Notes: generated by a model not told the origin, from the sequence alone. Positions 14,440-60,490 are shown, counted from the first letter of the stretch. The stretch is DNA of 64,000 nucleotides from Selaginella moellendorffii (GCF_000143415.4 NW_003314268.1:3542559-3606558), one strand, 5' to 3'. Numbers and translations: made by a program.

Positions 14440-14800
14440 CTACCATGAACACCATATATAAAGATAGTGCTTTCACATTTGTAAAGCATGAGCAATTGAA
14501 AGTAATTTTTGCTTATATATAGAATATTGTTATTTTGCATAATGTAATATCTGAATCTTATATGCAATAGGTTGTCCCTCTTATATGAGAATTCCCTCTA
14601 GTGCATAACCACTTGCATCACATATCATTTTGTAAAGTCTTGATGGATCAATAATATAAAGTATTGGAGCCTCACTCAATAATTATTTTAATGCTATAAA
14701 ACTATAATTTTGTGGCTTATTCCACTTTAATACCACATCCTTAAGCAATAAATGCATCAAAGGAATAACCATCTCCACAAATTTACACTAGAAATGCTAA
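14440..14800 (-). mobile_element. Degenerate Gypsy RT/RNase H remnant
   Basis: Minus strand reads DPSRLYKMICDASGYALEGILI*EGQPIAY, matching the Gypsy RNase H motif cDASg.algavL.QegrPIAy. Confidence 0.7.
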
Positions 14801-15539
14801 TAGTAATTAGTTAACTGTGTAACTTAGCCACTTCCCAAAAGATCACTTAGCTCAAAATATAAGGATGTTTATAACCAATTGAAAAGGGACCCCAATAGAA
14901 TGTCTCTTAAATTGGTTATTTACATTTATTTGGTTGTATAAATCCAAATTCAAGTAAATCCTTGATTTATTATTGAACTTCTTGCTCTTCCACATACTAT
15001 AATTTAAATGGATGCTAGTAGATTGGCCTCATCTCTGGCTCTAGCATAATCTTATATTCCACACCTCATAATAAAGGCAATTGTAAAACACAAATCTAAG
15101 TGAACATGAATAGACAAATGAGAAAATTTAATGAAGTATTCAAAAGCTAACTTTAACTCCTTTGGAAGATTAGATTGTTGATATTCCCAATTTAAGTATA
15201 GATGGCACTACCCACTTGAATACCTTTTATGGCTTATCAGAACTTTACTTTATCCCACCTTAGTAGTTAAAGGTGGGGGGAATACTTATAAGGCTTCTAT
15301 TGGATTCCAATATTTCAAAATATTATCCTAAAGTCCCTGATTATGGAAAGGAAGAAGAATGGTTATTTTTCTTAGTAATCAGGGGATAAAGTTACGTAGT
15401 GAGGAAGTTCCATAGGTTAATAGAACTTAGTGAATAGGCCTTAAGACCATGACTCAGTGGTGGTGTTGGTGAACATTGTTAAGATTGGAAAGGACTTTAT
15501 AAGGATCAAAGGGATATTAGAGAAGAATATGCCCTTGCT

Positions 15540-18500
15540 CCCTCGGACCACTAAAGTGTTTAAGGTTGAGCTTGGGCTAGCCATTTTAGACACTTTTGCA
15601 TTTTAGAGACCCAAGATTATTGGCCCCCCGGGTTGATGTAAAATTTAAGTTTGCCATTTTAGGCACTTTGGCAACCTATAGGGTTGAGGTTATTTAAATA
15701 ACTTTAGCTCTTTAGATTGTCGAAGTGCCCAAGGTTGAACTTAGGTTAACCATCTCAAGTACTTTAGCAGCCTAAGGGGCTAAGGTTATCCAAATAATCC
15801 TAGCCCACCAACCTGTAAAAGTGCTTGAGGTTGAGTTTAGACCAACTCATTGAATCTTTTATTATCTTTGTTTAGTTTGATTAACAAAATTCCTTCTTTT
15901 GTAGAAAACAAAAATAATACCACTTAAAAAGTTGTTGGAGCCAAGAAAACATGAGAAGTTGAATTTAACACTGATGAGAATATTACAATCAACATATTCA
16001 TCAAGACATCAATACAGATGTAATTGTTTAGAGATCTACCACTTTCACTATCATCACCACTGCCATTGCCACCATTGCCAACTTGATTAGAGAAATCCCT
16101 TTTTGCCATTTGCAACAGATGAACTTTGTGCCCACATCCAAGTATGTCAACTCGGAAATATATAATCTATTTAAACAAAATGGCCTCATAACAAATATCA
16201 GTATGTTTCTAAATATCTTTCTACAAGTCAAGAATAATAGAGATTGTTACCGTCACACTCTAGATTATGAATAGCTAGGATCCTACTTGGAGGAGGAAGA
16301 CCCTTGAACATGCTTATCAAACATTCTGAGACTTGACAGCTTAAGGGGATAATATTCTAAATTATTGATGGTAACCACTGATATAGGGTTTGGATGAAGT
16401 GTAATGATAATTATTTTTGCGATGATCTTGTCTACCATATCAACATTCTAGTTGGCCATGTTTATGTAAGGGGACTTTTGGATGTCAAAAAACTTATCTT
16501 GGCTTACCAAAAGATCAATGTGTAACTTTTATAATTTCACCTCCAACTCCACTTTAACTTGTTTTGTTATGTTTAAATGCAAGCTTAGGCAATTTACTAT
16601 TCAAAAATAGAATCTTGTCCATAATATCGAACAACTCTGTTTTTTGGCAGACTTGAGTGAGGATGATATCTACCAATATTATAATGATGATCTTAAAACA
16701 CTTATTCAGCATTCACACACTCGAAATGACAGTACAACATGGTTCAATAACCCAATTAATTTTATGCTCACCATATGGTGTAAGGTATGTCTTTCCCTTT
16801 CACTTTATAAAGACCTTTTTTTTATTGTTTTGGTTTCTAACCTTTGGTGAAGGTCAAGCAAGATGCTTATAAATTTGCATATCTGATGAAGAGTTGGGAA
16901 GAACTTTTGACTGAGCTCGTACAAATTGAGCATAAATTTAACATGCACAGTCTTTAAAGTTGAAGAAATTAGTATGCATTGCAGATAATCACAAGTCAAA
17001 GGAGTGGTTAGACACTATAGCCAAAAGTTTTGCTCATAAATATAAGTTTCTTATCACATGCTTCATTTTTCTCAATTACGTACATATTTATTTTGCAGTG
17101 AACAAAACTTCAAATGACATGATTTACAATATTGCAAAATTAAGGCTTCTATACAAGAAATAGATATAGACTCTAGAGTTCATCAATATCTACTTGATGA
17201 GCAAAGAGAAAAGATTGCCAAAAGTATTTAAGAACATGATGAGAAAGGCTGTCTACATCACACAAATTATAAGTGAGAAGTTCTTAGCACCGCACATTGG
17301 TGATAATTGTAAGCTCCTGAGTTTGGACTTCCCCGGGAGGTCACCCAGCCCAGTACTATTCAAACCCAATGACGCTTAACTCCAAATATCCCAAGACCCT
17401 TAACCGTTTGAAAAAGGGGGTGCACTCTTGTTCATGGGCCCTTTCCCTCTATATTTGAACCCCATAGACCGTCTCTCAAGTCGTTCCCTTTGGTTGCTTA
17501 CAATAATCTAAATGGTACATTCATGTCTTTCAACACCTATATCAACACATTATTAGAAGGGATTGAAGAGGGGTTGCCAGAGAAGTTTATAAGCACGACA
17601 ACTTATGATTGCCAACATAGTTAACGTTATTTCATGTGATATGCAACTTACAAATATAACATGATTTCTAAGATCTTCCTAAATATATATTGTTTACAAG
17701 TATCTTCAATATAGAGATATGCCATTTGAGGCACCAATTTGCACTCAACTTGGTGTAAAGGGTGTAAGGGATAAAGGAATATATCTAATAATATTTGCGA
17801 GAGTTAAAAAGGCACAGAAGATAGAATGCTTTTGGGAGTTGAAGCTCCTAGAGAAGAAGACCCTTACACTAGACCAAAAGAAAGTTGTTAATGCTAGTAA
17901 TAATGGCAATGTAAATAACAATGGATAGAAGGATGAGGAAGCTTTGGATCAAGCTTATATTCCAAGGGGCATAGTCTCTCCAACATAGAAACTCATTCAG
18001 CCACCTAGGGTGGTTTGCTCCCTTTTATTGGTTTAGTTCTCGTTAAACCCATTAGAGACACCTTCTTTAACTCCATTCCACTACTCATTCTCGAGTAGTC
18101 CCCACTAGAAGGCTAGGATAGAGCTCTAATTCCACCATTAGATATCTAGAATCTAGATTAGGTTCCACTAGCAAATAATGATGATCAAGTGGTTCACAAA
18201 ATATTATATTAACCTTGAAGTAAACAAAAGTGACTTTTATAAACCAAAGGTGGTAATACATATTTCTTGCAATAATGATTGTTGGTAGTAATTTCATTCT
18301 AGCTTGACAAAATGCTTGTGATGAGGGGTTGAAGGAAGTCTTATCAACAACATTCTATATGACAGTAGTATATTATTCTTTACTTTTTTCATTCATTTAG
18401 CTCTTCTACATCTTTTATAGAAGACAACATGAACATGGATATACAATGCTAATTCAACCACACCTGACCATATGCATGATGCATTCCTTTTATCGTAAGC

Positions 18501-19370
18501 ACTTATGCTTGAAGCTGGCTATATCATCTTCATCCAATTAAATGTATGAGTTTATGATATGTGCAATACAAGTTCTTTTCAGACTTCCCTCATATGCCCT
18601 TTGTATCAATGCCAATAGGATCTATGATGTACCCAGAAGAGAAAGACTTGAAATGAAAAGGTGAGTAGGTATTTTATATTTTTATTTACTTTCTTATTTT
18701 CCAGGTTATAATGTGGATCTATTATGTTTTTTGTAGAAATATGTATGACAAGTGTGTGATAGCAACCATGGAGCATGCATTTTTTCTGGGTACGACAGTT
18801 CCATTGAGATCATACCCAGCCTTGTGGATAAGCAAATTTACAACACGTTTCTAAGGTACCAATTTTGAATTCTATTGGCATTTGAAGAAATGATGTTCTT
18901 CAATAGCAAATACTGACATTACCTCCAACTTTAAGGAGGTAAGTTATTTTATTAAGATTTCAATACATGTTTAGTTCTATTTTATAGATCATAATCACCT
19001 AGAGTTTCTAGAATTGGATGCTTTAGAAGTCTCCCTAACTATATAAAAGCCATGGCTTGACAAATGCAAGGTAAATCTTCTCCATAATACCAATATAGGA
19101 AGAGGTGTAAAAAGAATTAATATGTTCATGATGAGGCAAAAGAAAGCTAATTGCATCCTTATATGAAATGTAAAACTTGTTATATATCAAATATCAATGA
19201 TAGTGTTAGATGTTTGTGACAGGTGATAGTGTTAGTGTCAAATATTATAATTGCAAATTGTCATTCTCACGTACCACTATCACTCTATAGCACTTATGTG
19301 TTGCCATCTCATTTTTCAACATCATATAAATAATTATATGATAAATGATAACACCATTTATTTAGCAATT
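15540..19370 (+). pseudogene. Copy 1 of the decayed ParB-like + DNA amino-methyltransferase gene (inverted paralogue of 23220-27510)
   Basis: Reverse-complement homology to 23220-27510 throughout. IIDGNH(*=R)YRVWMKC at 16361-16402. Conserved GT/AG sites, e.g. donor gtgagt at 18661 and acceptor ccag|gttataatgtgg at about 18704. Both MTase signature motifs are deleted in this copy. Confidence 0.8.
17308..17502. mobile_element. 195-bp solo LTR (TRIM-like) with ATAAT target-site duplication
   Basis: Termini TGTAAGC...GCTTACA form a 7-bp inverted repeat, with ATAAT on both sides (17303-17307, 17503-17507). The paralogous copy at about 25241-25290 (minus strand) shows the empty site. Confidence 0.9.
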
Positions 19371-19639
19371 GTGGCAATGGTCAAGAAAACTATTCAAGCC
19401 CATAAAAATGAATTTCTGACCCAAGACAAAAAGGCATATTAAACATCTTAGAATTAAACTCTCAATGTTTTCACTGGTTCCTATTAAACTAAAATGACTA
19501 TTGTGTTGATTTAAAGGCCGCTAAGAGAGCCTACATATTTTCTTTGAATCATTCCTAAATTGAATAATACACTTCTAATACCTTGTTTGTTGTAATTGTT
19601 ATAGTGGATATTCTACTCTAGAATAAGATATGTTACCTC

Positions 19640-21420
19640 ATAGAGCCATTTGTCTTATCCAAAAAAAAATAGTATATTAGACATTGAATATAATAACATT
19701 CTATACTTTCAAGGCATCCTGCTATATCAAGAACAAGATCTTGCAAAAACATGTGATATTGCTCTTTGAAATATTGAAGGCAATCCCTTTCTAATAAGAA
19801 GATTTAAAATTTCATATATAGGGAGCTCTAGTTTAGCTTCACTAGAGCCCCCAATAGAAAAAGGAGGGGATGGTCCAAAGTTGAGTTGAGCTCACGAGTT
19901 AAACTTAATTTAACACAAGTTAACTCAAGTCAATATAGTCAACTAAAAGTCTTACAAAGGAAATCTAAATTGAACAAATGAAGGTTCTAACAAACTTCAA
20001 AATATTTAAATACGTAAATATCTAAGTTAAAAGTTTCTATAAGATTGAATTGAAAAAGACAAAGTTCATGAGAATCTATTGTTAATGAAGTTATATTATT
20101 TTATTATGACTATTGTTACAGTTTTTATATTTTTATTTGACTACTTAATATTTTGAATACTTTTACAGCTATAGATACTATTCCTTCATTCGAAAGATTT
20201 TTTAGGGTTCTTGAGAAGATGGGAAGCAAGGAAAATACAAATTTGTGAGTAAGAGTTGTAATGCAAAGGAATGTGAGAATATTAATTTTGTTTCACTATC
20301 AGAATCTCTATATTACACTCTTGGTCTTTATTACCCATTTGGGAATGTGAAGACCGCTATCATGATTGATAAAAATGCTCTTGTTACTTCTAAAACAACA
20401 GTCCAAAATAAGAGAAATGAAAAATGAACAGCACAGTGGAAAGCACCAAGAAATCTACTCCATAAAACTTTCCATGACATTTATAATTTACATATTGATT
20501 CATATAAAAAACTTTGTTACCTGCCTATATCGCAATCCTCTTATATGATATGACCAAGGTATATTTTTAAGGTGAATCCTTATTAAAAGTTTTTGGGAGT
20601 TGTTTGTGAATAATAAAAGAAATCGAAATCTTTTGAAAAACTCAAAAATAATATCACATCAAAGAATCAACTTTATCTACATTTCCAAGACTGAAAGGCA
20701 ATCTCACACAAGAGAATAGTAGTGTGCCACCGTGCTCTACCACTATAATGTGGTCTATATTTCTTTGCAGTCTATTTCCCTAAATATTTGGTATGTTTAG
20801 AAAAGAATATATGTGTAGTAAAGTAGAATTTCATCATAATGATAAACTATATGTATACACAATAATCTAAAATTGTAGAAGCTCTTATATTTACAAGCAA
20901 GCTATGATTATGAAGCCTCATTTCCAAAATTAACATTTAAAGAATCTAAGTATTGTCAGTGTCATAATAAATAAAACTCATTCCCAAGACTACAACTTAG
21001 TATATAAACTATCTAGAAAAGTTATAGTCATTATAGTTTTTTTTTTTTCCTTGAGTTCCTTGAAAGTTTGTATTGAAATAGCTCAAAGGAAAGTCACTGC
21101 TACTCATACTTAGCCCCCCAGCATTTCATATCAACCTCCACCTCTATCCTCAAGTTCTACTAACATTCCACCTTCACCTTCACATAACAATCATTTTTCT
21201 ACTAAGGGCTTTAGTGAAGTTGAAGTAGAGCTCCTTATATATGAAATTCTGGGTCTTGCTACTAGAGAGGGATTACCTCCAGTGCTTCAAGAGAAATGCC
21301 ACATGTTTTTGCAAGATCTTGCTCCTAAAATGGCAAGACTACTTGAAAGCACAAAATAGTATTACATTTGGTGTCTAATATGCTATTTTTTCTTGGATAA
21401 GACAAATGGCTCTATAGGTT
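19640..21420. repeat. Segment bounded by inverted repeats of about 220 bp (19640-19860 / 21200-21420); interior 19868-21200 is an inverted copy of 39100-40286
   Basis: tagagccatttgtcttatccaa...caagatcttgcaaaaacatgtg pairs with cacatgtttttgcaagatcttg...ttggataagacaaatggctcta. The interior tggtccaaagttgagttgag matches the reverse complement at about 40264-40283. Confidence 0.8.
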
Positions 21421-21539
21421 TACAAACTTTTCTTGAACATTGTAGCAATTTCTCAATGGTAGGTCTGGAAAATGTGCACATGTGGATGTACAATAGATTC
21501 AAGAATGAGTTATGGATACATACCCACTATCATTTCATG

Positions 21540-23056
21540 TGTAAGCGACTAAATGTTCCATTCTACTTTAGTCCCGTAACCACACCTCTGCCCACTTGGA
21601 GGAGTCTCATTCACAACCTCCATAAGTCCAATTCAGGACTTGGGACTTGCTAGCCCCAAGAGTGGCATCCATGCCACTCCACCCTTGCACCTGGTCCAAG
21701 TGCTCCACGTGTCTGATCCCATGACTGACACTCAAAGGTACCACCAACATAGCAGCCTGTTACGCTAAGGCCATGCCCAATCACCTTTGCCGCACCAGTA
21801 GTCCAATACCACTTGCAACACAGTCTTGTCTCTCCAAGACTGAGCCAACCATCCGTGAGTGGTCATCCCAGATCCACTTCTTAGCATCCTTAGGATGCCC
21901 ACCGACAAGGGGAACAGCCTTCCCCAATATCCCTCTGTCTATCCTCACGAAGTCCCTTTCTGCCCTTGGCCGTGTTAGCCAACACTGCCACTGGATCGAG
22001 GCCCACAAGCCTGACCACTAAGTCCCATGGTCCTCTGGGACTTCCTCACCACGTGACTGTATCCTTGGCCACCACACCAAAGGATTGCTCCTTGTCCTTT
22101 CCACAGCCTGGGACTTTGGGACAACACTTCGGAACACCGTGGCATTACGCGAGCCACCTGGGTACTCTCCCTGCCTTCCGCCATTGGGTGCTCTAGCCAT
22201 GGGCTTAGAGTGAGGTTCCGTTGAGCCACGCCTGGTATCCAAGTAGGTAGTGCCACCCACACTTGGATTGGGAGCATCGGCCAGTCAATCTCCCAGGGGA
22301 ACTAGAGCCGGCTCTTGAACACTTCACCAAGCTACCCCGCTTATCGGTCCGTATTCACTTTAGTCTTGGACTTCCTAGTGGTCAGTTCATCACCCAACAC
22401 TGGGTCTGGCCTTCCTGGGCCAAACTGGCCTTTCCTGGCCAAACTGGCTCCTTTGCAGTCCTCCCCCTTACTATACTTTTGGAGCTCACCAAACCCCCCA
22501 GGGTTTGGGAGACGAATGCTTTGGGCTTTCACCCTCTCAGACTCGAACTTGGACTCGGACTCGGACTCAGACTCGGACTCGGACTCGGACTTGGACTCGG
22601 TCTCGGCCTCCGCCTCGGTCTCGGTCTCGGTCCCGGTCCTGGTCTCGGTCTCGGTCTCGGTCTCGGTCCCGGTCTCGGTCTCGACCTCGGACTCCATCTC
22701 AGGTCCTTCTCGGACTCCATCTCGGATTCTATCTCGGGTCCATCTCGGACTCCATCTCGGACTCCATCTCGGTCCATCTCGGACTCCATCTCGGACTCCA
22801 CCTCAGACTCCACCTCGGGCTCCATCTCGGACTCCGTCTTGTGTTGGTCCTTTTGGGTCCCTTTTTGGAGCCTCGCTTATTGCTCACTTCGTGCTTATTC
22901 CTCGAGCACTTTGTTGGGAGTTCCACTCCCACTCTCGACCTTTCAAGTCGGAGTTTTTAGTCCAAACGTGTTATGCTTGTTTGGCTTTTGCTTTGGCCAC
23001 TACCACGTGGCACCCTTCCGGCTCCACTTTGGGGCCTAGGGATTTTGTGTCTCACA
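21540..23056. mobile_element. Solo LTR (family B, 1517 bp) with TCATG target-site duplication
   Basis: Termini TGTAAG...CTCACA, with TCATG at 21535-21539 and 23057-23061. GC-rich relative to its flanks. An older homolog lies at 41860-42795. Confidence 0.9.
22539..22836 (+). repeat. Hexamer/dodecamer tandem array (ACTCGG, GTCTCG, ACTCCATCTCGG) inside the family-B LTR
   Basis: Visible periodic repeats, which also produce the spurious DS/ET/RS-repeat ORFs. Confidence 0.95.
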
Positions 23057-23399
23057 TCATGGTGATGAACAACATCCTCTTGGGAAACCCTACATCGGCT
23101 AGTGCAAAATATAGGGTTTTTAGGCCACCCTATAATGGAATGTAAGATTTACTATACTATAGTATTGTCACTTTTAAAAGAAAAATATAATAAAATGGTA
23201 TTAATTGTAGATAACATAGTTTGTTCTAGAAGGTGCTATTATATCACATATAATTGTTTACAAGATGTTAGAGGAGATGGCTATACACAAGTGCTACAAA
23301 GGTGAGAATGATAATTTATAAATATGATATCTAACACTAACACTAACATTTGACACTTTCACTAACATCTGATACATAACAAGTTTTTTAGTTTATATA

Positions 23400-26300
23400 A
23401 GGATACAATTAACTTTCTTCTACCCCATCATCAACATATTGATTTCTTTTATGCTTCCTCCTATATTGGTATTGTAGGGAAGATTCATCTTGTATATGTT
23501 GAGCCATGGCTTCTGTATAGTCAGAAAGACTTCTAAAGCCTCCAATTCTAGAAACTTCAAATGATTGTGATTTATAAAATAGAATTAAACATGTATTAAA
23601 ATTTTAATAAACATAATTTACTTCCTTGAGGTTGGAGGCAACTCACGAAATCCTCTGAGCTAGCATTTGAAGAAATAATGTTCTTCAATAGCAAACACCA
23701 ACCTACCAGAGTTACGTGCTGCCTCCACCATAGAATTGCTACCTGCTATGCAATCAATCACAACACCATCTGGTGGGCAATAGAGCTTAAGCAAGACTTG
23801 CATCGCTAATGGAGTTCAAAATTGGTACCCTGGAAATGTGTTGTGGATCTGCTTATCCACAAAGTTGGGTATGATGTTAGTGGAACTGTCATACCTAGGC
23901 AAAACATGTGCTACAAGTTCGCTATCATAAAACCCATCATATGTGTTTCTGCAGAAGGCATGATAGGTCCACATTATAGCTTGAAAAATAAAAAAGTTTA
24001 GAAATTAGATAAAAATATAAAATACATACTCACCTTTTTAGGCTTCCCTTGGATGCCCCTCATATCGACACCAATAGGATCCATGATGCACCCGGAAGAG
24101 AATGACTTAAAATGAACTATTGCACACATCATAAGTTTATACATCTAGTTAGGGTCGTTCAATAGGATGAGGACAACATGGCCAGCTTCAAGCATAAGTG
24201 CTTCAGACAAGAGGAATGCATCATGCATGTGGTCAGGTGTGAGAAAGTTCCAATCCTCAACTTTTCCATCAATATCTGAAAGACTGTCTAGAAAATCGAA
24301 GAGAATGAAGTCTGCAACTAAGAGCAAGGGCCTTTTGTATCTTTTGGCACCACTGGTTGAATTAGCACCATATATCCATGTTGATGTCATCTTCTATAAA
24401 AGATGTCAAAAATCTACTGTAAAATCCAATGAAAACACCCACAATGCCTCGTTATGTTATTGGGGAAACAGGATGGATCTATAGAAGAGGTAAGTGAATG
24501 AAAAAAACAATGAATAATATGCTACCGTCATATGGTATATTGTTGATGAGAGTTCTTCTAACTCCTCTTCAAGAGCATTTTGTTGAGCTGGAATGAAATT
24601 ACTACCAATAGTCATTGCTGTAAAAAATATGTATTACCATCTTTAGTTTGTAAATTTCACTTTTGCTTACCTCAAGGTTGACATGATATTCTATAAACCA
24701 CTTGATCATCATTATTTACTGATGGAACCGGTTGTTTGATGGTTGAATTGAAGCCTGATCCTGGCTATCTGGTGGTGGAATGCGAACGTGATCTGGAGCT
24801 TCCTCATCCTCGTCTCCATTGTCACTTGCATTGCTATTGTTGCCAGCATTGACAATTTCCTCTTGGTCTAATGTAGAGGTTTCCTTCCCTAGAAGCTTTA
24901 ATTCCTCCAATGCTCCAATGCTCCAACTCCCAAGGGCATTCTATCTTCCGTGCCTTTGAAGCTCTTATAAACATTGTTGTGTACCTTCCTCCATCCCTTA
25001 CACCCTTTGCAACAAGTTGAGTGTAAACTGATGCCTCAAATGGCATGCCTCTATATCAAAAATACTTGTAAACAATATATATTTAAAAAAAGTCTTAGAA
25101 ATTATATTATATCTGTAAGCTATACGTTGTATGAAATAAGGCTAATCATGTTGGCAATCATAAATTGTGCTTGTAGACTTCTCTGGTAGCCACCCCTCTT
25201 CGATCCCTTTCAATAATGTGTTGATGTAGGTGTTGAAAGACATGAATGTGCCATCTGGATCATCACTAATGTGTGGTGCTAAGAACTTCTCACCTTCACT
25301 TATAGTTTGTATAATATAGACAACCCTTCTCAACATGTTCTCAAATAGTTCTGGTAGTCCTTTCTTTTTATTCATCAAGCAAACATTAAAGAACTTTAAA
25401 GTCTATCTATTGCTTATATGGAAGCTTTGATTTTGAGATATTATAAATCATGTCATCTGGAGTTTTGTTCACTACAAAAGTAATATATGCATAATTGAGA
25501 AAAATGAAGTGTGATAAGAAACTTATATTCATAAAAAGAAATTTTAGCTATAGTTTCTAGCCACTTCTTCGGCTTACGATTGTTTGCAATGCATACTAGT
25601 TTCTCTAAATTTGAAGACTTTGCATGTTAAATTTTGTGCTCAATTTGTACGAACTCAGCCGAGAGCTCTTCCCGACTCTTCTCTGAATATGCAAGTTCAT
25701 AAACATCTTGCTTGACCTTCACCAAAGGCTAAAAACCAAAACAATAAAAAGAGGCCCTTATAAAATGAAAGGGAAAGACATACCTTGCAACACACAATGA
25801 GCATAAAATTGATTGGGTTGTTGAATTAAGTTGTACTATCATTTCGAGTGCATAAGTGCTAAACAAGTGTTGCGAGATCATCACCATAATGTTGGCAAAT
25901 GTCATCGTCACTCAAGTCTGCCAAAAATCAAAGTTGCTTGATATCATTGACAAGGTTTTGCTTTTATACAACGAACTGCCCAAGCCTGTATTTAAACACA
26001 ACAAAACAAGTTAAAGTGGAGTTGGAGGTAAAATTATAAAACTTACGCATTGATCTTTTGGCAGGCCAAGATAAGTCTATTGGCATCCAAAGGTCCCCTT
26101 GCATAGATATAGTTGACTAGAACATTGATATGGTAAATGGGATCATCGTGAAAATGATTGTTGATACACTTCATCCAAGCCCCATATCGGTGGTTACTAT
26201 CAATAATTTGGAACATTGTCCTCGCAAGCTATCGAGTCACAAGATGTTTAATAAACATGTTATCAAATTCCAAGGACTTCCTCCTCTAAATAGGATCTCA

Positions 26301-27021
26301 ACTATTCACAATCTCAGGTGTGACGGTAATGATCTCTATTATTCCTAGCTTGCAAAAAGTGATAGAAACATACCGATATTCTTCGCAAAGCCATTCTATT
26401 TGAACAAGTTATATATGTCCAAGTTGACATACTTTAATGCTGTGCAGACAAGGTTCGTCTGCTGCAAATGGCAAAGAGGATTTCTTTGATCAAGTTACAA
26501 AGGCCTAGCCACTTAAGTGCCTCAAGTGTTTGGTAAATTGTTTTTTCCCTTGTTCACATAACAATCTCTTGGAAGCACTTATCTACCACGTTGTCAGGAA
26601 AGTTTGCAACTCTTTCAACTCTAGGCTGTTCCTTAGGTTCCTTATCGTAAACACCATTAGATTGCCCAACTTCAAGGATTTGTGTTGGTGGTGGGTAAAT
26701 GAGGAGTCAAGGTGGAGGTGGTAGTGGTGATGGTGGGGGTGGTGGTGGTGGGGGCAAGGGTAGAGGTAATAGTGGCAATGGTGGTGGCAATGGTGGTAGT
26801 GGCAGTGGCAGTGGTGATGGCGGTGGTGGTGGTGATAGTGGTGGTGGATGTGGCAATGGTGGTGGAGGTGATGGTGGTGAAGGCAGTGGATTTTTAAGTA
26901 ATTGCATCTTTGTTGATGTGCCAATGGACATATTGATTATAATATCATCATTAGTGCCGAATTGAATTTCTTGTGTCTTCTTGGCTCTAACAACCTTTTT
27001 ATGTGGTACAATTTTCCTTTT
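23400..27021 (-). pseudogene. Copy 2: multi-exon gene encoding a Pro-rich region, a ParB/Srx-like domain and a circularly permuted beta-class N4C/N6A DNA methyltransferase
   Basis: Manual translation gives MFQIIDSNHRYGAWMKCINNHFHDDPIYHINV (IIDSNHR at 26187-26207), VADFILFDFLD...DWN...LMLEAGHVVLI (motif IV position 24286-24297), and YQF*TPLAMQVLLKLYCPPDGVVIDCIAGSNSMVEAARNSGRLVFAIEE (motif I at 23732-23755). Short GT-AG introns, e.g. 26046-25986. Internal stops are TGA/TAG/TAA explicable by single C->T or G->A changes. Confidence 0.8.
26706..26890 (+). repeat. GGT/GGC trinucleotide tract (poly-Pro coding on the minus strand, within the ParB-MTase gene)
   Basis: (ggt)n-rich run. It is much shorter in copy 1 (about 16035-16080). 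Confidence 0.9.
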
Positions 27022-27109
27022 CTGCAAGAGAAAAATTTTTGTTAGTCAAACTAAATAAAGATAATATGAAATTCAAACAATCAAGAGAAAAATAAAATTC
27101 AAGTGGGCC

Positions 27110-27510
27110 GAAACTCCACCTCAGATACTTTGGCTGTCAAAGGGCTGAGATTATTCAAATAACCTTGGCCCCTCCAGCCCTTAAAGTGCCCAAGGGCAAG
27201 CTTGGGCTAGCCACTTCAGGCCCTTCAATGGCCACTTGAGATTGACCTCGGGCACTTTGGCAACCTGAGAGGCCAAGGTTATTCAAATAACCTCGATCCC
27301 TTAGGCGGCCAAAGTGCCCAAGGTGGCTGGCCCGAGCTCGACCTCGGGCACTTTGGGTGCCCGAGGGGCCCAGGTTATTTGAATAACCTCGGCCCCTCGG
27401 GTGGCCACAATGCTTGAGATGGCCCGCCTGAGCTCAACCTCGGGCCAAAGGGACAAGGTTATTCAAATAACCTCAGTCTCTTGGGCAGCCAAAGTGCTTG
27501 AGGTGAAGCT
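27110..27510. repeat. Tandem array of long palindromic units centred on GGTTATT(C/T)(A/G)AATAACC
   Basis: Example unit: ggcactttggcaacctgagaggccaaggttattcaaataacctcgatcccttaggcggccaaagtgcc. About 4 centres. A homologous decayed array lies at 15540-15845. Confidence 0.85.
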
Positions 27511-29943
27511 TGGACTGGAGACAGAAGGTGATAGAAGTAAGAAAAAAAAACAAAGAAGCAATCAAATTAAAACACACCCTTGGTGGCATTTTTCCTTTCT
27601 AATCTCTCGATCATGTTGGATTTCTCACACTTTCTCACTCTCAAGCTTAACTCATGTTCACATTAGCATGCTCAATCTCTTGCACTCGATCTTTCCCACT
27701 TGTGCGCTCAATCTCTCGCACTCACGTGCTCCACGTTCAATCTCTCAATCTCTTATGCACTCAATTCCTCAATCTTTTGCAAGCTCAATTGCTTTGATCT
27801 TTTGCGGACTCAATCCCTTGATCTCCTTTGTGCTCAATTCCTCAATCTCTTGCACGCTCCACTCACAGCGCAAATAGTAACCTAATCTTGGCAGCTACCC
27901 TAACCCTAATCCTGACAATTGCCCTAACCCTAACCAATCTCTTATCCTGGCCATTCATTCCAAATAACTTAAATCTCAACCATCACAATATCTTTAATTT
28001 TATTTTATCTTATCATTATTATTATATATGAATTATGTCTAGCTCCCGCTTGTGTGTCTGTCTTTGTTCTGCGTCCAGCTTGGGTCTAAACCCAAGCTCC
28101 ACACCATGCTAGCTAGTGGAATACCCATGTCCTCGAGTTAGGCCACCGGTATGCCGAAATAGTGCCAGACTCTGTTTGGCTCCGTTTTGCATGTTAGTCC
28201 TGGCAGTGGGATGCTGGTTGCTCTAGGATTGTTCCAAGTCGCTTCGGGCTCCTGTCCCTTCGCTTTTTGGGGTATATGCTCGGGAGTTGCTTCGTGGTTC
28301 GGTTCCGTCACTCCCTGGCTCCATGCTTGGGAGTTTGGCATTGTTCCTTCATTCAGTGGCCCAAGGCCCTGAAACTCGGGTTCCACACCATTGTCCTTTG
28401 GACACATGGCATGTGACATGTGGCATCTGTCACGTGGCACAAAGAGGGTTTAGGTTTTGCTTCATGGTTATCTTATGGTAAATCACCATAGGATAAAGGG
28501 TAAAAACCACGTGTGCTATATTTGGTATTAGAGAGAGGTTCTCAGTGAGTACTATTTAATGAGATTGGGCAACTAGTCTCGTTGAATACGCAGAGATGAA
28601 AACGATGGTTCGAGTGGGTACATGTTTGGGTGCAAAGACTTTGCATTGGTTCCTTGGGTATGGATTTTGTTACCTTTTTTGTACCATAATAATGTGAGCT
28701 TGCTCTTGGGCTCATAGGATGGATTGAGTTATTCCGGTTGCACGAGTTTATACTTGGGCTCATGTGTGAGGCACATTAGCAACTCGAGGTTACACTTTGA
28801 GTTGGCAGGATTAATGTTAGCTTATCGGTGGTTCCATGAGTTGTTCCATGTACTGTGGGTGAAAGCAAACCTCCTTGGGTTTACTATAAGTGGCAAATAG
28901 GCTGGTCCGTAGCTATTTAGCATGGCACTAGTGGATCCTTCCTAGGCATGATTACGAGTGGATCAATCAAGACTATAGGGATTAGTCTATTGATTCAAGT
29001 AATTATTGTTGTGCTCTCTCATAAACTTTTCTTAGATTGGACTGAAGGTAGTGCGAAAGCAAGCTTGAGGTTTTATCAAAGATGAGACCGAAAAGAGAGT
29101 CGTCAAGGGATGAAGGATTAAACATGTAAATCATCTTCTTTTCTTGGAGAGATGATTTGCAACAAGGTGTTGACTCATTGCTCATATTCACATTATGCAA
29201 TCAAGAGTTTCTATCTTGATGCATGTTGGTTATGATGGTCTTACAAATGGTGAGTTATGGGATGGATAGTGGTGATGTGCTAAACCATTTTGTCTAGGCT
29301 TGCTATTGGAAAACTTGGGTTACAATGCTTAATTCTTTTCCAGGGCACCTTACTATTGCTCCTTGAGTAGCTTGGTGTTGAATTAGTGTTGAGTTTGGTC
29401 GGAAAGAAAGTGATATGAGCTTGTCCGTGTTATGAACAAAAGTTAGTGGTGTCAGGTGTTGTAAATCTCTATTGGTGGGGTGTGGCATTAATGTTACATT
29501 TTTGTCAAATTGAGTTGGCATTTGATAGTCACATAAACCTTTGAAGTAATAACATGGGTGTTACTTAATTGATGATCAATTCATTGTGATACTTATATCA
29601 TATCCATGTGATAGTGAGTAATGCATTTATGAAGTTGCTTGGTTAAATGATGATCAACCCTAAAGTGGTTGATAGTGAAGCTAATTTACTTGCACGAAGT
29701 AGCATTGTAGTAGCTTTAACTAAATTCTTGATGGTGGTCCATTATGTTAAGCATAAGTTGATTCCTTGTTCCTTGAGGGTTTGCTTATTAGGTGTTGGAA
29801 AAAGTTGTAGCATTCATTTGCTATAGCTTGTTAGTTGATCCATTGGCACTTGGAGTAGATTGTTGGATGGAGAAGATGTGTAGTAGGGGCATTAACATTG
29901 CTAGCACTTGTGTTAGTGGAAGTGGCATTGTTATTTCGAGTGA

Positions 29944-31080
29944 TGTCGCGAATGTGACTTCGGGTATCGAAAGTTACCTGTCGACCAGTCCTTACGGACA
30001 CTCTTTCCTTACTGCCACAATGGCAGGAGGTCGGTATTGCTGGACCCTTTATTAGTCCCTCTTGTTCAAGTGTTAGTAAACTGGACTTTGCATCTGTACT
30101 TGGCCGGATGAGCATAAGGACGGAATTCCTAAGTGTCTATTCAGCCAAGCATACTTGGCCTGGCTTTTTAGTTCTCTTTTGCTCTGTCTTGCACTGGCTT
30201 GACAAGAACCCTCACATATTGAGATTAGTCCCTCAATATTGCTACATGATAGCTTACCGTGTCTGCCAAACACCCTCGCTATCATGCCCTTTGTGTTAGT
30301 CTCATTTCGGTCCCAAATGCTATTTATGGAAAGTGTCCAGATTTGCTCATTTGGCATATCTACGGAATGTAGAGATTGGCCTGAACACAATGGTGTTCGT
30401 CCCGTGTCCAAATTCGCAATCTAAGGACATTCCATATTTAGTAAGTTTCAAGCTTGTCCCAGAGACTAACTCCTGATACTAAGGGAGGCTTGGGGTGAAA
30501 GCCCAAAGCGTGTGTTCCTCAAGGGGGGGGGGGGGGCTGTGGGGGGTTCCAAATGTATAGTAGGGATAGTGGGTAGGTCGGGCATGGCCGACCAACCTGA
30601 GGCATAGTCTAGCTCCCGCTTGCGTGCCTGTCCTTGTTCTGCGTCTGGCTTGGGTCTAAGCCCAAGTTCCATTCCATGCTAGCTGGTGGAGTACCCATAT
30701 CCTCACGTTAGGCCACCGGTATGCCGAAATAGAGCTAAACTCCGTTTGGCTCCATTTTGCGTGCTGGTCCTGGCATTGGGATGCTGATTGCTTCAGGACT
30801 GTTCCAAGTCGCTCCGGGCCCCTGTCCCTTCGCTCCTTGGGCTTTATGCTCGGGAGTTGCTCCGTGGTTCGGTTCCATCACTCCTTGGCTCCATGCTTGG
30901 GAGTTTGGCACCGTTCGTTCATTCAGTGGCTCAAGGCCCTGAACCTCGGGTTCCTATGGACACGTGGCATGTGACACGTGGCATCTGTCACGTGGCACAA
31001 AGTGGGTTTAGGTTCCGCTTCGTGGTGTTATCCTATGGTAAATCACCATAGGATAAAGGGTCAAAACCACGTGCGCTACA
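29944..31080 (+). mobile_element. Young family-A solo LTR (1137 bp) nested in an older family-A element, AGTGA TSD
   Basis: Termini TGTCGCG...GCGCTACA, with AGTGA at 29939-29943 and 31081-31085. It retains CpGs lost in the other copies. Confidence 0.95.
30961..30996 (+). promoter_or_regulatory. Three CACGTGGC (G-box/ABRE) motifs at 14-bp spacing in the LTR
   Basis: CACGTGGC at 30961, 30975 and 30989, plus a further CACGTG at 31068. Confidence 0.55.
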
Positions 31081-31332
31081 AGTGATGAGGAATTTTCCTT
31101 GGACCTTGATTTTCCATGTCATTTTTCTTGTTAATGTTTTGGCTTCACATTGGATCTTGAAGGTGGTTGAAGAAGAGTGTTAGTGCAATGTGGATATTTG
31201 AAGATGTAATCTTCGTGATCAAGCCTTGGATGTTTATTTTGTATTTTTGCGGATGTCAGAAAAATGGACAAAGATGTTCAGTGCTTAGACATATTGTTGG
31301 GTCGTGAGAAGAGCTCATTCTCTCTTACGAGA

Positions 31333-31582
31333 NNNNNNNNNNNNNNNNNNNNNNNNNNNNNNNNNNNNNNNNNNNNNNNNNNNNNNNNNNNNNNNNNNNN
31401 NNNNNNNNNNNNNNNNNNNNNNNNNNNNNNNNNNNNNNNNNNNNNNNNNNNNNNNNNNNNNNNNNNNNNNNNNNNNNNNNNNNNNNNNNNNNNNNNNNNN
31501 NNNNNNNNNNNNNNNNNNNNNNNNNNNNNNNNNNNNNNNNNNNNNNNNNNNNNNNNNNNNNNNNNNNNNNNNNNNNNNNNNN
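31333..31582. other. Assembly gap (N run)
   Basis: Run of N. Confidence 1.
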
Positions 31583-34500
31583 GATCCTAATCCCGGGACC
31601 CATGTGCAGTCGTTGTTAAACTATGTGAAGTTGTTAGTAGGAGAAAGTTGGTTCATGTCTTGAAAGTTTGCATTCCTAGACTGAGAATTATTCTTTTTCT
31701 AGGATGGAAAATTTTCCACAAATTTTCTTAGAATTTTCCAATGGCTAATCTGTTAATCATTTTGCTTGAAAACCATTCCATTTTCGTAAACCAGTATAAA
31801 CTAGTAAAGGGGTTAGAGTTGACTCCGGTTGGCTTAAACCTTTGTAAGTAGTTTGTATGATATAGCCCGAAAGGGATGCTGACCTTTGAAGCTAAGGCAA
31901 TTGAGTTAGTTAGGGTCTAGAGTTAGTGTAGAAAAGTGGCTGTTGCACTTTTCTAAGAAAGGTGACCCTTGTGCCTTTCTTCTATAGCATTGTGCTTGAT
32001 GATAGGTTGCATCTTGTATTTCGTTTAGACTATATGAGAGTAGTGAGCTCTCACTGATTTTGACTTGGTCTTGGTGGCCCTGCACCTTAGTTGAGGATGG
32101 TGATGTCCAACTTAGTTGTTTACAGTTGAGATGTTGGTAACTATACTATAGTTTTGTCTATGAGGAGGTTGTGTACCGATATGAGTCCATCTTGTGATCT
32201 TCACTTTTAGTTTCAGCTAAGTGTTGATCATGCATAGCTAGCCTCTTCAAAGCATGCTCAGAGCTATTGACTAAACGTGTTGGTAAGTTTATTGTGGTTG
32301 AGTTGGATTTGAGTAGTCATTTAGTTCATGCCTGTCCACGAACCTTTGTCTTGTGTTTGAGGTATTACGTTTATGTTGGACAAGTATATGACTTAATGAT
32401 AGGAGTTTAGTGTTGGATCTTGTAAAGGCAAGTTGAGGAGTGATTATTAGTTGCTTTACAACTAATGATTGCTTGTAAACTTCGTTGAGGACTGTTTGAC
32501 ATTTGCTTCACTAGATGATGATTTAGCAGTGATGGGCTTGCTTTATCGGATGGTGTTGTGGAGGATTGTATCGTTAGACTTACATGGGTTTTCCATGTTG
32601 GCATATCGATTCTTCCTCTGTCGATATCATTTAGTGATGTTTAGTCTATAGTGTTGGATTTCATTGAATCTTGGATGTGTTGATTCATTCTTTGATGATA
32701 TGTTATCTGTAACTGAGTTTTGCTAAGAGATTAGTCTCAGATACTGACTAAAGTATCTTTGACTTTGGTTAGCTTGGTTGTTGGAGAGTTTTGAGTGGTG
32801 ATTCACTCTTGCTTTCTTCTAGTTTTGTTATAGTATTGATAGTATTGAAGTGATGCTTTGTCGTTGACATTGTTGATATTGAGATTTGAGTGAAATGAGA
32901 TATCTTTCCAAGGATTGATATTGAATTTCATTAGTCTTGATGAAAATAGTGTTGATGATTTAGCTTTAGCTTTGTGTTGTTGGCATTCATGCATTTGTTA
33001 GTTAGCAACTATGTTGACGTTCAAATGAACTAAGTGGCAAGTTAAGTTAGTTGTGTTCTAGACGAGATTGCTTAGTTGAGGTTGAGCTTTAGCTTTTCGT
33101 TGAAAAGTGATTTAGTCGTGGACTATACTAGCTTTACAAATGGAAGAGTTAGTGATCGATATTAAAATGTTTGAATCTTTATTGGATTTGAGTTGGAATA
33201 TATTGATCATTGATGATTCTTCTTATGCTTGTTATAAAGTGAGTTACGTCTTGCTATAGATGGATTCATGAAGGATCGTTTAGTGATCACTTGTTGGGCA
33301 TAACTCCATTGTGTTTAACTTTTGGATTGATATAGACATGCTCTTCATTAGCTTTGCATTATGAAGTTTAGTTTATGGATGTGTTGAGGAGAATATTGTG
33401 AATTGTACCATGATTTCTTCTTTAGTATTGAAGTTAGTTCATGCGAAACTCGTGATCATTATTAGACAACACTTGGCTATAGACTTCTTCGAACTTTCGG
33501 TTCCTTGAGTTTTTATGCTTATTGTTCCATTTGTTTGAAGTTGTTGGGGAAGGCATTTTGGCTCATTAACTTCGATGTTGAATTTAGTATTTTGCATCTA
33601 GCAATCATTGATGATGATTGATTATCATCTAAGATAATTGATTATCCTTGTTAAAGGTTTTGCCTGATTATTATTGATCTAGAATGATTTGTCATTCTTC
33701 GGGATAGTGGATTCTTTCTTCGATAATGATTATGCATCTTTCTCTTGATGGGATGATTGATGATCTTTCATGATAGTTAGTTATTCTCTCTGATGGTTTT
33801 TGGCTTTTCGCAATACCACATGTTCTTTATGGTTTGCTCTGGATTGGTCTCTTGGGTTTGAGATATCAATAGGATGTTGCTGACACTTGCTTGAGCAACT
33901 CTAGTTCCTTGGTATTGTTGACCATGATCTATTTAGATTATCTAGTGTAATAGTTAGCATGAACGAGTGTTTGTTGGTTTTGCCGCATTCATTCTGTTCT
34001 GTTGCTTATTGTTTGCATTAGTTCTGATAGATTGGGGATGTTATTTCCTTTGGGTGATACATTTGCAAGCATTTTGCTTGCTAGTCAATGATACTTTGTG
34101 TTCTTTGAGTTGTGTTTTGTGAGTTGTTTGGCATGCTATCTGCCATTTTTGGTAGTTAAGTTTCATCATTGAGTTTACTTAATGATATACTTTGCTATTG
34201 AATTTTGTTGGATGGTGAATCTTATGTTTTCCAATGATAGTGATCTTGGTGGTTCCTATACTATAATACTAGTTTAACAGATGATAACTTACTTGGAATA
34301 CTTTTGTGTTCTAATCTAAGCTTTATTCACTGATAATTAAATCTCTAAGATATCATTGTTTATGACTTTGATATAATCCATATATATTGATCTATGAGTT
34401 TGGGCTAATATAGGTAGACTGGCTTCGGCACTTCGTGTGTATGGTGAAATCTCTAGTCATGGGGTAGCTACTATCGACTGGTCCCATAACCCACCTCTCT

Positions 34501-36054
34501 GTCGATGTTCCTTATTCCGTTAAAAGGGTGTGACTGTGTAAACAACTCTCACTGCTTGTTTACAGTAGTCTATTTAAACCTTACCAACGGGTTTGGTTTC
34601 TTTGCTTAGGAGGGTTGGGGCCTCTAGCTTCTCTCTCTATATCCTTGCGGGCAGGGGCGTATCACACTTTTGTAGCTGGGTGACATCCAGAGTAGCAAGG
34701 GTGGCTGACTCTGTTGGTCATTTCCTTGTCGGCGACGGCCCAAAGGTGTCTAAGTTGGTAGTGCATCCGCATTAGACAAAGAGGTTACCCCCTAACTCAT
34801 TTAAGTCGGTGCATTTCTCACATAGTGTGAATACTGTAAACTTTTTCTGGAGTTGTTTCCTTGGCAGTATTCTAGACTTGAGTATGCATCGACGAGGATA
34901 TCGATCTTCCCAAGGGGGGGAGAGTGTCATGAATGTGACTTCAGATATCAAAAGTTATCTATCGGCCAGTCCTTATGGACACTCTTTCCTTACTGCCACG
35001 ATGGCAGGAGGTCGGTATTGTTGGACCCTTTATCAGCCCCTCTTGCTCAAGTGTTAGTAAACTGGACTTTGCATCTGTGCTTGGCAGGATGAGCATAAGG
35101 ACGGAATTCTTAAGTGTCTATTTAGCCAAGCATACTTGGCTTGGCTTTTTAGTTCTCTTTTGCTTTGTTTTGCACTAGCTTGACAAGAACCCTCACGTAT
35201 TGAAATTGGTCCTTCAATATCGCTACATGATAGTTTACCGTATCTGCCAAACACCTTCGCTATCATGCTCTTTGTGTTAATCTCATTCCGGTCCCAAATG
35301 CTATTTATAGAAAGTGTCTAGATTTGCTCATTTGGCATATCTACGGAATGTAGAGATTGGCCTAAACACAATAGTGTTCATCCCGTGTCCAAATTCACAT
35401 TCTAGCGCCATTTCATATTTAATAAGTTTCAAACTTGTCCCAGAGACTAACTCCTAGTACTAAGGGAGGCTTGGGGTGAAAGCCCAAAGCATGTGTTCCT
35501 CAAGGGGGGGTTCCAAATGTATAGTAAGGATAGTGGGTAGGTCGGGCATGGCTGACTAACTTGAGGCATAGTCTAGCTCCTGCTTGCGTGCCTATTTTCG
35601 TTCTGCATCCAGCTTGGGTCTAAGCCCAAACTCCACACCATGCTAGCTGGTGGAGTACCTATGTCCTCGTGTTAGGCCACCAGTATGCTGAAATAGTGCT
35701 AGACTCCGTTTGGCTCCGTTTTGCATGTTGGTCCTGGCATTGGGATGCTGGTTGCTTTAGGATTGTTCCAAGTCGCTCCAGGCTCCTGTCCCTTTGCTCC
35801 TTGGGCTATATGCTCAGGAGTTGCTCCGTGGTTCGGTTCCGTCACTCCCTGGCTCCATGCTTGGGAGTTTGGCACCGTTCCTTCGTTTAGTGGCCCAAGG
35901 CCTTGAAACTCGGGTTCCACACCACTGTCCTTTGGACACGTGGCATGTGACATGTGGCATCTGTCATATGGCACAAAGAGGGTTTAGGTTCTGCTTCATG
36001 GTTATCCTATGGTAAATCACTATAGGATAAAGGGTAAAAACCATATGCACTACA

Positions 36055-38000
36055 CTTCCCATGGTGTAAATTTTGTCTCCCGAATAAATATGTTTGGGTC
36101 TAGTGACCTTGCAAATGCATGGGTGCATTTTGACCATATGGAGCATGTATTGGGTTGGATAACCATGGGAGCTCATATGTATAATCCAAGGTAATTTTTA
36201 TTTTCATTATATTAAAATTATTGTAATATTTGTGTTTTCACAAGCTACATTGTAACTTAACAATTGCAATAGCAAAGTTTAAAGTACAAAACTAAACAAC
36301 CCAGGAAATATTTTGGAAGTCCCTCTCCAATATTATCCTAAAGAGGACTGGTAAACTTGCAAACTTTCATGGTTTTGTGGCAGATGGGGCTAATGCAAAT
36401 TGGAATGGTGTCCAAGCAGTTTTTGGAAATGATTAGCCATTGGAAGGTTGTGAGAGGACTTGTGAGTTTTATTGGGCTCAAATCTTAAACCAACACTACC
36501 ACCTTATCAAGCTAGAGTTTTAATTAATGTTTAAGGAGTTGTGCAATTAATGGCAGGTTGCACCTTCTGGAGAAGAGCATGAGGCAAAAGAAAATGAGAT
36601 CTGAATGTGATGGCATGAAGATGGCCATACGAACATAAGTTGTCTACCATAACTTAAGTCATAGTTAGGGTAGTGGGAAGTTAGGATGTTCTAATAGGGA
36701 CATCACTCTTTTCAAATTGGTTTCTAATTTTTCTTCTCATTTTATTACCTTTTAATATTTCTTTTTCCATTAGGATCAACCACTTGAGGACCTCACATAC
36801 ACCCCAATTGTGAATCTCTCCAAAAGTAAACACTAGAGTTGGCATTCCTCTAAAGCAAGGAAAGGGAAGATGAGTCTATATGAAGTCTGTCTATCAGATT
36901 TGATATGTGCTATATAGCAATCTTCAAAAGAGTTGGCATTCGAGGAAGGAAGAGACGTGGGAATAGGGTCTTCTGTTGAGATGTTACATGATAGGATGAA
37001 GAGAAAATTAACTCTACCTACCCAAATAGTAGCAACTACATTTGAGGAAGTGGTCCGTAACACACCTATAAAGTACACTCCTCGGGCTTCTATTGGTGAT
37101 ATAAAAACTATTTGCTCAAAGCATCATTTTTCCTTTGTTAATGAAGATGTTTGCACCTTGGAATAAAAAGCTCTCACAAACCTAATATTAAATACCATTC
37201 TCTCTCAGATTGAGCCACCTCAAATGGCTGATGAAGAGAGTGCATCACAACAGGTTGAAATTGTTTACCATAGCATGGAGCTGAAGCAATAGGCAATCTA
37301 ATGTGTGCTAGCAAAATCGAATATAAAGTGCATGGGGATGCTTTTGAGGGGTAAGTGTTAAGTCTAAATTTGTGGTGACAAATTTTCTTTTGTTCCAGCC
37401 CCATGTTTCTATGGGGAATAAAAGCAAGTAAAATTTTCAAGATGGTGCTATCTATATTGTTGCAACACCAACGTGAACCATACAAAGTAGCTTGAAGACA
37501 CTATAGTGACTAAACCTGATATAGTACCTAAAGAATGGCTAGTCACCAATGGGGTCACACTCACCACAAATGATATTGAAAACCTTGAGAAATTTGGTTC
37601 AATTTTGAAAGAAGAGTTGGAGACATGAAAGACAGAACCAAGACTATTTCTAAAGAGATACATAGGATGCTAGCAAGAAAAGGTAAGGCAGTTAAATTTA
37701 TTAGTACCGTCTCAATTTGCTCAAACACTTGAGTGTGAGATTCTCTACACGAAATACATTATTGCACTTGTAAAGGAGTACATAGTTAAAACAGAAAGTA
37801 GAGAGTATATAATTACCATTCAAGATTTTCCTTCTTACACATGTTTAGACTTTTTGAAGCGTGAGGAACATGGGAAGGCATATGCTCTTTGCAACATATG
37901 TACCACATCTTTATCAATATCTTGCACCAGGATATTCATATCCTCAAATGGATATTCATATACACCAAGCAAGCCTTACTATTACTAATATGCAGAAAAC
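36055..38000 (+). mobile_element. Decayed MULE-type DDE transposase with a C-terminal SWIM zinc finger
   Basis: AWVHFDHMEHVLGWITMGAHMYNP (about 36116), GFVADGANANWNGVQAVFG...ERTCEFYWAQIL (from 36371), and SWIM YIITIQDFPS(Y<-C)TCLDF...C(K)HMYHIF (about 37806-37910). Introns, stops and frameshifts are present. Confidence 0.8.
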
Positions 38001-40286: not shown

Positions 40287-40359
40287 TTGTCCATGCTTTG
40301 GGGTGAGTTTATCACTCCTGATGGCTCACTTATGCTATTTTAGCTTATAGGATTGCTAC

Positions 40360-40512
40360 AAGAAAAAAGAAATGGTGTTTCTAGTTTTTTGTCCAGGCAA
40401 GAGCAACTATAAAAAGTTTTTGGCAATGGATGGCAAGCCATTCTTGAGCATGGATGAAGCATCTAGATGGTATAGGGTTATGGTGGATGGTATAGGTAGG
40501 GATTTTTTACAT
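40360..40512 (+). pseudogene. Second captured fragment of the 52163-54052 gene
   Basis: MVFLVFCPGKSNYKKFLAMDGKPFLSMDEASRWYRVMVDGIGRDFL versus parent TVFLVFDPGKGSCEELPAMDGEPFLAGFSMDQASRRYRVVVDGIGRDFL. Confidence 0.9.
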
Positions 40513-55233: not shown

Positions 55234-55335
55234 AAAGAAACCCAAGAACCGCCTCAACGCATTTCTAGCAATTTCTTATTTGATCAAACTACATTCTCAT
55301 AGAGTGTGAATTCACGCATTGATCAGCTCTCCATC

Positions 55336-60316: not shown

Positions 60317-60370
60317 CTGATGGAAAAGCGCTATTTTCGTGTGTGTGTTAACGATTGTTATTCCCTCCCA

Positions 60371-60490
60371 GATTGTTAAACTTTACGACCTTCTAGGCAG
60401 CACACAGTGTGATTGTAAAGCTTTGACGACCTTCTAGGCAGCACACAGTGTGATTGTAAAGCTTTGACGACCTTCTAGGCAGCACACAGT
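60371..60490 (+). repeat. 41-bp minisatellite x3 (gattgtaaagctttgacgaccttctaggcagcacacagtgt)
   Basis: Units start at 60371, 60411 and 60452. Confidence 0.95.

Follow-up and report, generated by a model that had tools for sequence, protein, structure and literature searches.

Dead copies of a spliced plant gene likely joining a ParB/Srx-like domain to a bacterial-type DNA methyltransferase in Selaginella moellendorffii

Recruitment of bacterial amino-methyltransferases by multicellular eukaryotes is rare, and the cases shown so far, N4CMT of bdelloid rotifers (PMC8885841) and MpDN4MT1a/b of Marchantia (10.1101/2021.02.12.428880), are host genes. In phages, amino-methyltransferases occur fused to ParB, as in WBK39746.1 of Desulfofustis phage LS06-2018-MD01, which combines ParB_N, a helix-turn-helix and N6_N4_Mtase. 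ParB-terminase loci are also listed among phage systems (PMC4738411), a ParB homologue activates a phage DNA-modifying enzyme (PMC13229309), and the role of ParB in the ParB-methyltransferase fusions has been called unknown (PMC12783734). We analyzed 64,000 nucleotides of the spikemoss Selaginella moellendorffii (GCF_000143415.4, NW_003314268.1:3542559-3606558; below, the window, with positions counted from its first letter), in which two decayed gene copies encode what is likely a ParB/sulfiredoxin (Srx)-like domain and, behind it, a beta-class methyltransferase of bacterial type.

The spikemoss protein shares the domain order of WBK39746.1, one of its weak matches, and has a related S-adenosylmethionine (SAM)-binding half, and motif IV is atypical in that phage protein too (DFPY). 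It differs from the phage fusions in being about twice as long and spliced, in having a divergent ParB/Srx domain nearer to DGQHR/DndB, and in its motif IV, DMPDG. A significant alignment is limited to the SAM-binding half. The Marchantia and bdelloid enzymes, compared by description only, are likewise beta-class enzymes of bacterial origin in a multicellular eukaryote, the bdelloid one with introns. Unlike the spikemoss family they are host genes with (T)SPPY and demonstrated N4-methylcytosine (4mC) activity, and neither is a ParB fusion or a high-copy repeat: MpDN4MT1 has no extra domains and N4CMT carries a chromodomain. The S/TSPPY of these eukaryotic 4mC writers is replaced in the intact spikemoss relative by a motif with D as its first residue and no aromatic, so the link to them drawn in an initial annotation of this DNA found no support. 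Two further groups described in PMC4738411 (Iyer et al.) bear comparison. Group I clade 2 (SLPD; Dictyostelium and myxobacteria) has a permuted fold and a motif IV ending in hydrophobic-P-D, as the spikemoss family appears to, and the chlorophyte-type Dam of green algae and chytrids is likewise a ParB-derived fusion, with a helix-turn-helix of ParB type on an adenine methylase, but belongs to the unpermuted group 2 and has the helix-turn-helix in place of a ParB/Srx core.

In our reading, the window segments are dead copies of a plant gene, spliced and multi-copy, that a transposon likely carried and whose protein would have docked on palindromes and methylated DNA, adenine more likely than cytosine; taken whole, this is a tentative reading that falls slightly short of an even chance. 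The copies themselves are clear. The minus strand carries copy 2 (27021 to about 23230) and the plus strand copy 1 (about 15850-19360), so that they are mutually inverted, as initially annotated, and 2390 of 2964 aligned bases (80.6%) are identical. All of the motif strings quoted in the annotation were located (IIDSNHR at 26207-26187, IIDGNH-TGA at 16361, ADFILFDFLD, and YQF*TPLAMQ...FAIEE). The copies differ by 472 transitions versus 102 transversions, and 64 of 212 single-change codons are synonymous, where neutrality expects a fraction of 0.33; this codon-change comparison gave no sign of selection between the two. Their divergence is neutral and by transitions. The observed/expected CpG ratio is 0.2-0.3 in the decayed copies versus 0.9 in the flanking genes. 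The window ends carry GC-rich genes with a ratio of about 0.9, and between them, at about 8-44 kb, lies an AT-rich island, depleted of CpG and CHG, which is a nest of decayed repeats.

Other parts of the annotated gene structure fared unevenly. Of the short GT-AG introns, four were checked in copy 2; two are clean (61 and 55 nt), while one has no acceptor and one no donor. The methyltransferase does not directly follow the ParB motif, as had been proposed, because about 400 codons, helical and acidic, separate the two domains. In copy 1 its motif IV is deleted, the motif I region is gone and two later insertions are present. The proline-rich run is real and long in copy 2, but it is much shorter in copy 1 and missing from the intact relative, and is therefore likely a repeat expansion.

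When the reading frame of copy 2, with stops written as X, was compared with 1.84 billion representative proteins, three matched at E<=0.001, all of them from S. moellendorffii. The relatives in this species, all named uncharacterised or hypothetical, include XP_024519109.1 (627 aa, E=2e-37 to the copy 2 frame) and XP_024516985.1 (224 aa), which together are colinear with copy 2 from the ParB-like domain to the end. Gene model SELMODRAFT_404703 unites the two proteins and is uncharacterised and stop-free, a status taken from gene models, which can hide stops; it is the intact relative of the window gene. Overlapping gene models likewise put the ParB-like and methyltransferase parts into a single gene, and a second model, SELMODRAFT_419856, is close to the first. 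Two intron positions appear to be common to copy 2 and this gene, judging from where the models splice or read through. The window copies are only 30-53% identical to the SELMODRAFT_404703 locus and belong to the same subfamily as another S. moellendorffii sequence, P0003, to which pieces of the window show 64-78% identity; a third subfamily, XP_024519602.1, recurs letter for letter on 5 contigs. Word-index protein searches with the intact proteins matched S. moellendorffii only, and the same kind of search with the last exon gave no match, which is weak evidence that the family may be restricted to Selaginella. No relatives were found in metagenome and viral contigs. Neither Selaginella gene number is listed in the PMC4738411 supplement, 10.64898/2026.10.09.758095 and PMC12344493 describe related but different cases, and literature searches, with most subscription journals outside their scope, returned no paper on the spikemoss family.

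The C-terminal domain almost certainly has a methyltransferase fold, judging from profile and predicted-structure matches. The last exon matched Pfam N6_N4_Mtase, the profile that the initial annotation had singled out, at E=6e-4 and 20.3 bits, below the curated 26.7; this was the sole match under E=0.05 in a scan of 11 pieces, 3 of them in the wrong frame. In the window exon the SAM-binding half matched PHROG 3008 (E=4.5e-6) and PADLOC (E=5e-5). This half of the family also matched DNA methylases in NCBIfam, resembled phage DNA methylases by tblastn, and aligned to phage DPPY enzymes with an hhalign probability of 97%, the templates having been preselected as best matches. With N6_N4_Mtase clusters of the ESM Atlas the whole domain scored 0.95, which one in 100 shuffled proteins attains as well. 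Its SAM-binding motifs X-I-II lie near the C-terminus, as in the beta class (PF01555); the annotated fold and, by position, the motif order found support. This half is also the best-conserved part of the protein, with 44 invariant columns across the three subfamilies and 53% identity versus 31-41% elsewhere. For the catalytic half, global alignment placed the motif IV position on DPPF, and PADLOC mad2 matched the catalytic stretch of gene model P0004 at E=0.04. PDB sequence searches gave nothing significant, the best methylase being at E=0.35. Membership of Group I clade 2, suggested by eye and by Myxococcota matches in the Atlas, was rejected, as a profile built from 48 of 101 fetched loci gave no hmmsearch match at E<=10 and an hhalign probability of 0.4%. 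The best matches in Myxococcota genomes (32 of 251) belong to a conserved stand-alone beta-class DPPY family with HTDPPYC, of which only the SAM-binding half aligns.

The N-terminal domain likely has a ParB/Srx fold, as predicted structure and weak profile matches suggest, in keeping with the annotated ParB/Srx-like domain. A DG-x-H/R-R motif behind a hydrophobic strand is found in the intact relative (VVDGNHR) and in recognizable form in copy 1 (IIDGNH) and copy 2 (IIDSNHR). The DGNHR stretch of RefSeq model P0006 weakly matched phrog_1033 (ParB-like; E=0.013) and TIGR03187 (DGQHR; E=0.005), and its Atlas model (pLDDT 0.55) gave TM values of 0.50-0.58 to ParB/Srx, DndB and ParB_N models, all below the tool's bar for naming. 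Together with the failure of chromosomal ParB proteins to match, these results argue for the fold and against a canonical ParB. Identity with chromosomal ParB/Spo0J was ruled out by a 30-sequence profile and Pfam, and a helix-turn-helix 3' of the ParB core was considered as well and went unsupported, the 30 chromosomal proteins being unmatched. DUF3723 is a domain of Starship elements, and the Atlas feature matches of P0006 residues 68-224 include this fungal domain (31% of that cluster), which is possibly a relative with the ParB/Srx fold.

The family is plainly multi-copy in a public sample, which agrees with the repetitive element of the initial annotation. Three DNA runs of this one sample contain relatives of the gene; no RNA run was listed beside them, which has no bearing on expression. 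Over 15000-28500 their contigs span the gene, the palindrome array upstream of it and the segment next to it, and as many as 47 different contigs meet at a single site. The amplified unit is thus the whole gene plus its upstream array and no mere fragment. Both window copies are preceded by such an array (Table 1), and the 16-bp palindromes in it are possible, if somewhat doubtful, targets of the fusion protein itself. The arrays have observed/expected CpG ratios of 0.37 and 0.19 and are unprotected from CpG loss. At 27650-27960, 5' of the array of copy 2, we also observed short CAATCTC repeats and telomere-like CCCTAA words, possibly a subterminal or promoter region.

The gene was probably carried by a transposon, and the carrier was likely a DNA transposon. 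A 1.35-kb inverted pair encloses both the methyltransferase gene and a Mutator-like frame, which is separated from the gene by a truncated long terminal repeat (LTR) element. By eye this frame resembles the DDE transposase with CxxH and SWIM finger of Mutator-like elements; its link to the carrier is unproven. Terminal inverted repeats with a target duplication of 8-11 bp, by which Mutator-like elements are recognized, were not found. Extra frames, often antisense, are known in Mutator-like elements, and the accessible part of PMC6446971 lists no methylase among them. Rfam gave no match over 15000-41000. A Gypsy-type reverse-transcriptase RNase H remnant lies at 14450-14720 on the minus strand (Pfam E=2e-16). 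The flanking F-box/Kelch-like gene family (2751-2889, 53723-54061) has an AT-decayed fragment inside the repeat island at 40289-40506, which places the island and the flanking genes in one genome.

In the mechanism that we propose, the gene was likely cargo of a DNA transposon. The N-terminal or helical part of its protein would dock on the 16-bp palindromes that precede the gene, and the methyltransferase would methylate nearby DNA of the element, adenine more likely than cytosine, perhaps blunting host silencing; we infer both the self-marking and the counter-silencing. A model for this is VANC of the Arabidopsis VANDAL Mutator-like elements (PMC5735166), an accessory transposon protein that targets tandem repeats in the non-coding DNA of its own element, but which is an unrelated protein, causes loss of 5-methylcytosine (5mC) and is no methyltransferase. 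At this locus host 5mC silencing won: C-to-T and G-to-A decay has erased both copies. A more specific version, in which an intronised phage-type ParB-methyltransferase loads on a parS-like array of a vascular-plant DNA transposon, writes N6-methyladenine (6mA) or 4mC via D-x-P-D as a shield from 5mC, and has intact members in S. moellendorffii, is unlikely when taken as a whole.

A number of results weigh against the proposed mechanism. With regard to the carrier, no transposase was confirmed by Pfam or an IS256 profile on the neighbouring frame, and no target duplication lies at 6 bp or less from the ends of the 1.35-kb inverted pair, nor were element ends found. Neither ParB_N nor HTH_ParB matched window pieces or relatives in Pfam, and the profile built from 30 chromosomal ParB sequences reached an hhalign probability of 0.13%, the level of shuffles. 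Six of seven window matches to the 16-bp palindrome, allowing up to 3 mismatches, lie inside the two arrays, but the pattern was derived from the array itself. The contig depth summed over the gene, 146-233 times the long-contig depth in the three runs of the one sample, is by the tool's own warning no copy number. On its own the catalytic half did not outscore shuffled sequences when set against the phage, myxobacterial and clade-2 profiles, and 706 of 1000 shuffles scored as well against the phage ParB fusion. Both AlphaFold models, made from shallow input, are of low confidence (pLDDT 36). Motif I of the family has no F, and motif IV, which reads DMPDG in the intact relative and DFLDS in copy 2, departs from [DNSH]-P-P-[YFW] in having neither the aromatic nor the first proline.

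These last points bear on whether the domain ever methylated DNA. It may instead have been a dead scaffold that kept SAM or nucleic-acid binding and served the element as a binding or decoy module, which we consider rather unlikely. The altered motif I, the missing aromatic and the lack of a significant match for the catalytic half fit this explanation, as does the precedent proposed for the methyltransferase domain of the DIRS1 retrotransposon (PMC4738411). The first D and third P of motif IV and the acidic residue of motif II are retained, however, the SAM-binding half is strongly conserved in three subfamilies, and SLPD and DLPY are known from other amino-methyltransferase clades in the same article, on the basis of prediction. 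In copy 2, the L and S of DFLDS are each one transition away from the P and G of DMPDG, the change type that dominates the decay; the suggestion in the initial annotation that motif IV had once read DFPD, with loss of a proline, fits the intact motif. We put the chance that the ancestor was catalytically active at slightly better than even, on sequence grounds. DMPDG is not DPPY and the catalytic half has no significant bacterial alignment, so activity is unproven, a doubt already voiced in the initial annotation, and nothing favours 4mC over 6mA. By the convention of PMC4738411, in which motif IV is [DNSH]PP[YFW], S is tied to N4-cytosine and the SLPD and DLPY variants are described from prediction, the D at the first position leans toward N6-adenine, by that convention only.

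Two other explanations dispense with a benefit to the element or with the transposon. The intact GC-rich locus could be a domesticated host gene of bacterial origin, the decayed copies being passengers of a transposon that captured it. There is indeed a GC-type locus free of stops that has a second allele or paralogue, introns appear to be shared, and the Marchantia and bdelloid precedents are host genes; but the window copies, only 30-53% identical to this locus, form a separate subfamily with P0003 (64-78%), the third subfamily is identical on 5 contigs, and the entire gene was amplified along with its upstream array, all of which makes the host-gene explanation improbable. If an endogenous large DNA virus or a Polinton-like element had brought a phage-type ParB-methyltransferase into the plant and left this remnant, the phage-like domain order would be accounted for, and endogenous giant viruses have been reported in a moss (PMC12344493). 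No viral hallmark family was found in the 42 of 78 island frames that were scanned, viral contigs contained no relative and the gene has several short spliceosomal introns, and we regard a viral origin as very improbable.

Table 1. Features of the repeat island, with window coordinates, strand and supporting observations.
Feature	Position	Strand	Remarks
Palindromic array 5' of copy 1, equivalent to that of copy 2	15590..15845	.	Cores at 15688, 15784
Copy 1, further decayed than copy 2 and lacking motifs IV and I	15850..19360	+	Insertions 17309-17502, 17965-18160
1.35-kb segment, inverted repeat at 39081-40285 (77%)	19869..21221	+	Perhaps a long terminal repeat belonging to the carrier
Unclassified decayed frame, convergent with copy 2 (tail to tail), split by solo LTR	21191..23200	+	No Pfam match; counterpart by copy 1 at 19631-19865
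Solo LTR (TG...CA), inserted later	21540..23056	.	5-bp target duplication TCATG
Methyltransferase SAM-binding half, copy 2	23621..23977	-	DCIAGSNS (motif I position) 23755-23732, motif II AIE; 53% identity to P0001
Intron with decayed acceptor, copy 2	23978..24033	-	P0004 reads into the intron at the equivalent residue
Methyltransferase catalytic half, copy 2	24034..24400	-	31% identity to P0001 410-507; D-F-L-D-S at 24297-24283
Decayed central part of about 300 codons (helical exons, acidic linker), copy 2	24671..25728	-	31-35% identity to P0001 31-283
Intron, 55 nt, GT-AG, copy 2	25729..25783	-	Splicing at the equivalent residue in gene models P0004 and P0005
Helical exon 3' of ParB core, copy 2	25784..25985	-	78% identity to P0003 over 45 aa
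Intron, 61 nt, GT-AG, copy 2	25986..26046	-	RefSeq model P0006 stops at the equivalent point
Proline-rich expansion, then ParB/Srx-like domain; first recognised coding exon, copy 2	26047..27021	-	Two frameshifts, several stops; 41% identical to P0006 over 99 aa (tblastn, combined E=6e-18)
IIDSNHR motif, copy 2	26187..26207	-	Intact relative VVDGNHR, copy 1 IIDGNH*
About four 96-bp palindromic units 5' of copy 2	27100..27520	.	16-bp palindrome GGTTATTYRAATAACC at the centre of each (27149, 27277, 27373, 27457); candidate docking sites
LTR retroelement with truncated left LTR	28037..36054	+	Nested solo LTR 29944-31080, target duplication AGTGA; hides upstream end of carrier
Decayed spliced frame, likeness by eye to Mutator-type transposase with SWIM finger	36057..38000	+	Pfam and IS256 profile negative

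Further features lie on either side of the island. A DIT1/PvcA isocyanide-synthase-like gene lies at 55303-56934 on the plus strand (Pfam E=2.5e-27 and 1.3e-46) and is a candidate for horizontal transfer, the family being usually bacterial or fungal. A Fic/DOC-domain frame was found amid GC-rich genes at 58892-60382 on the minus strand (Pfam E=2e-13), and long uncharacterised frames at 4034-6158, also on the minus strand, contain a stretch resembling a P-loop (AAA_16, E=0.04) as well as a weakly matched PHD finger (E=0.006). The start of a Copia-like gag-pol frame at 62145-64000 on the plus strand is open and free of island-type decay.

What is new here is a eukaryotic capture of an amino-methyltransferase in a vascular plant, in a family that is unstudied and has stop-free members, the window locus itself being dead. 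With both stop-free proteins and a candidate 16-bp site available, the role of ParB in ParB-methyltransferase fusions becomes testable. If the proposed mechanism is true, marks other than 5mC in plant DNA could come from this family, and a lycophyte transposon that writes a DNA mark of its own would be a fresh move in the silencing arms race.

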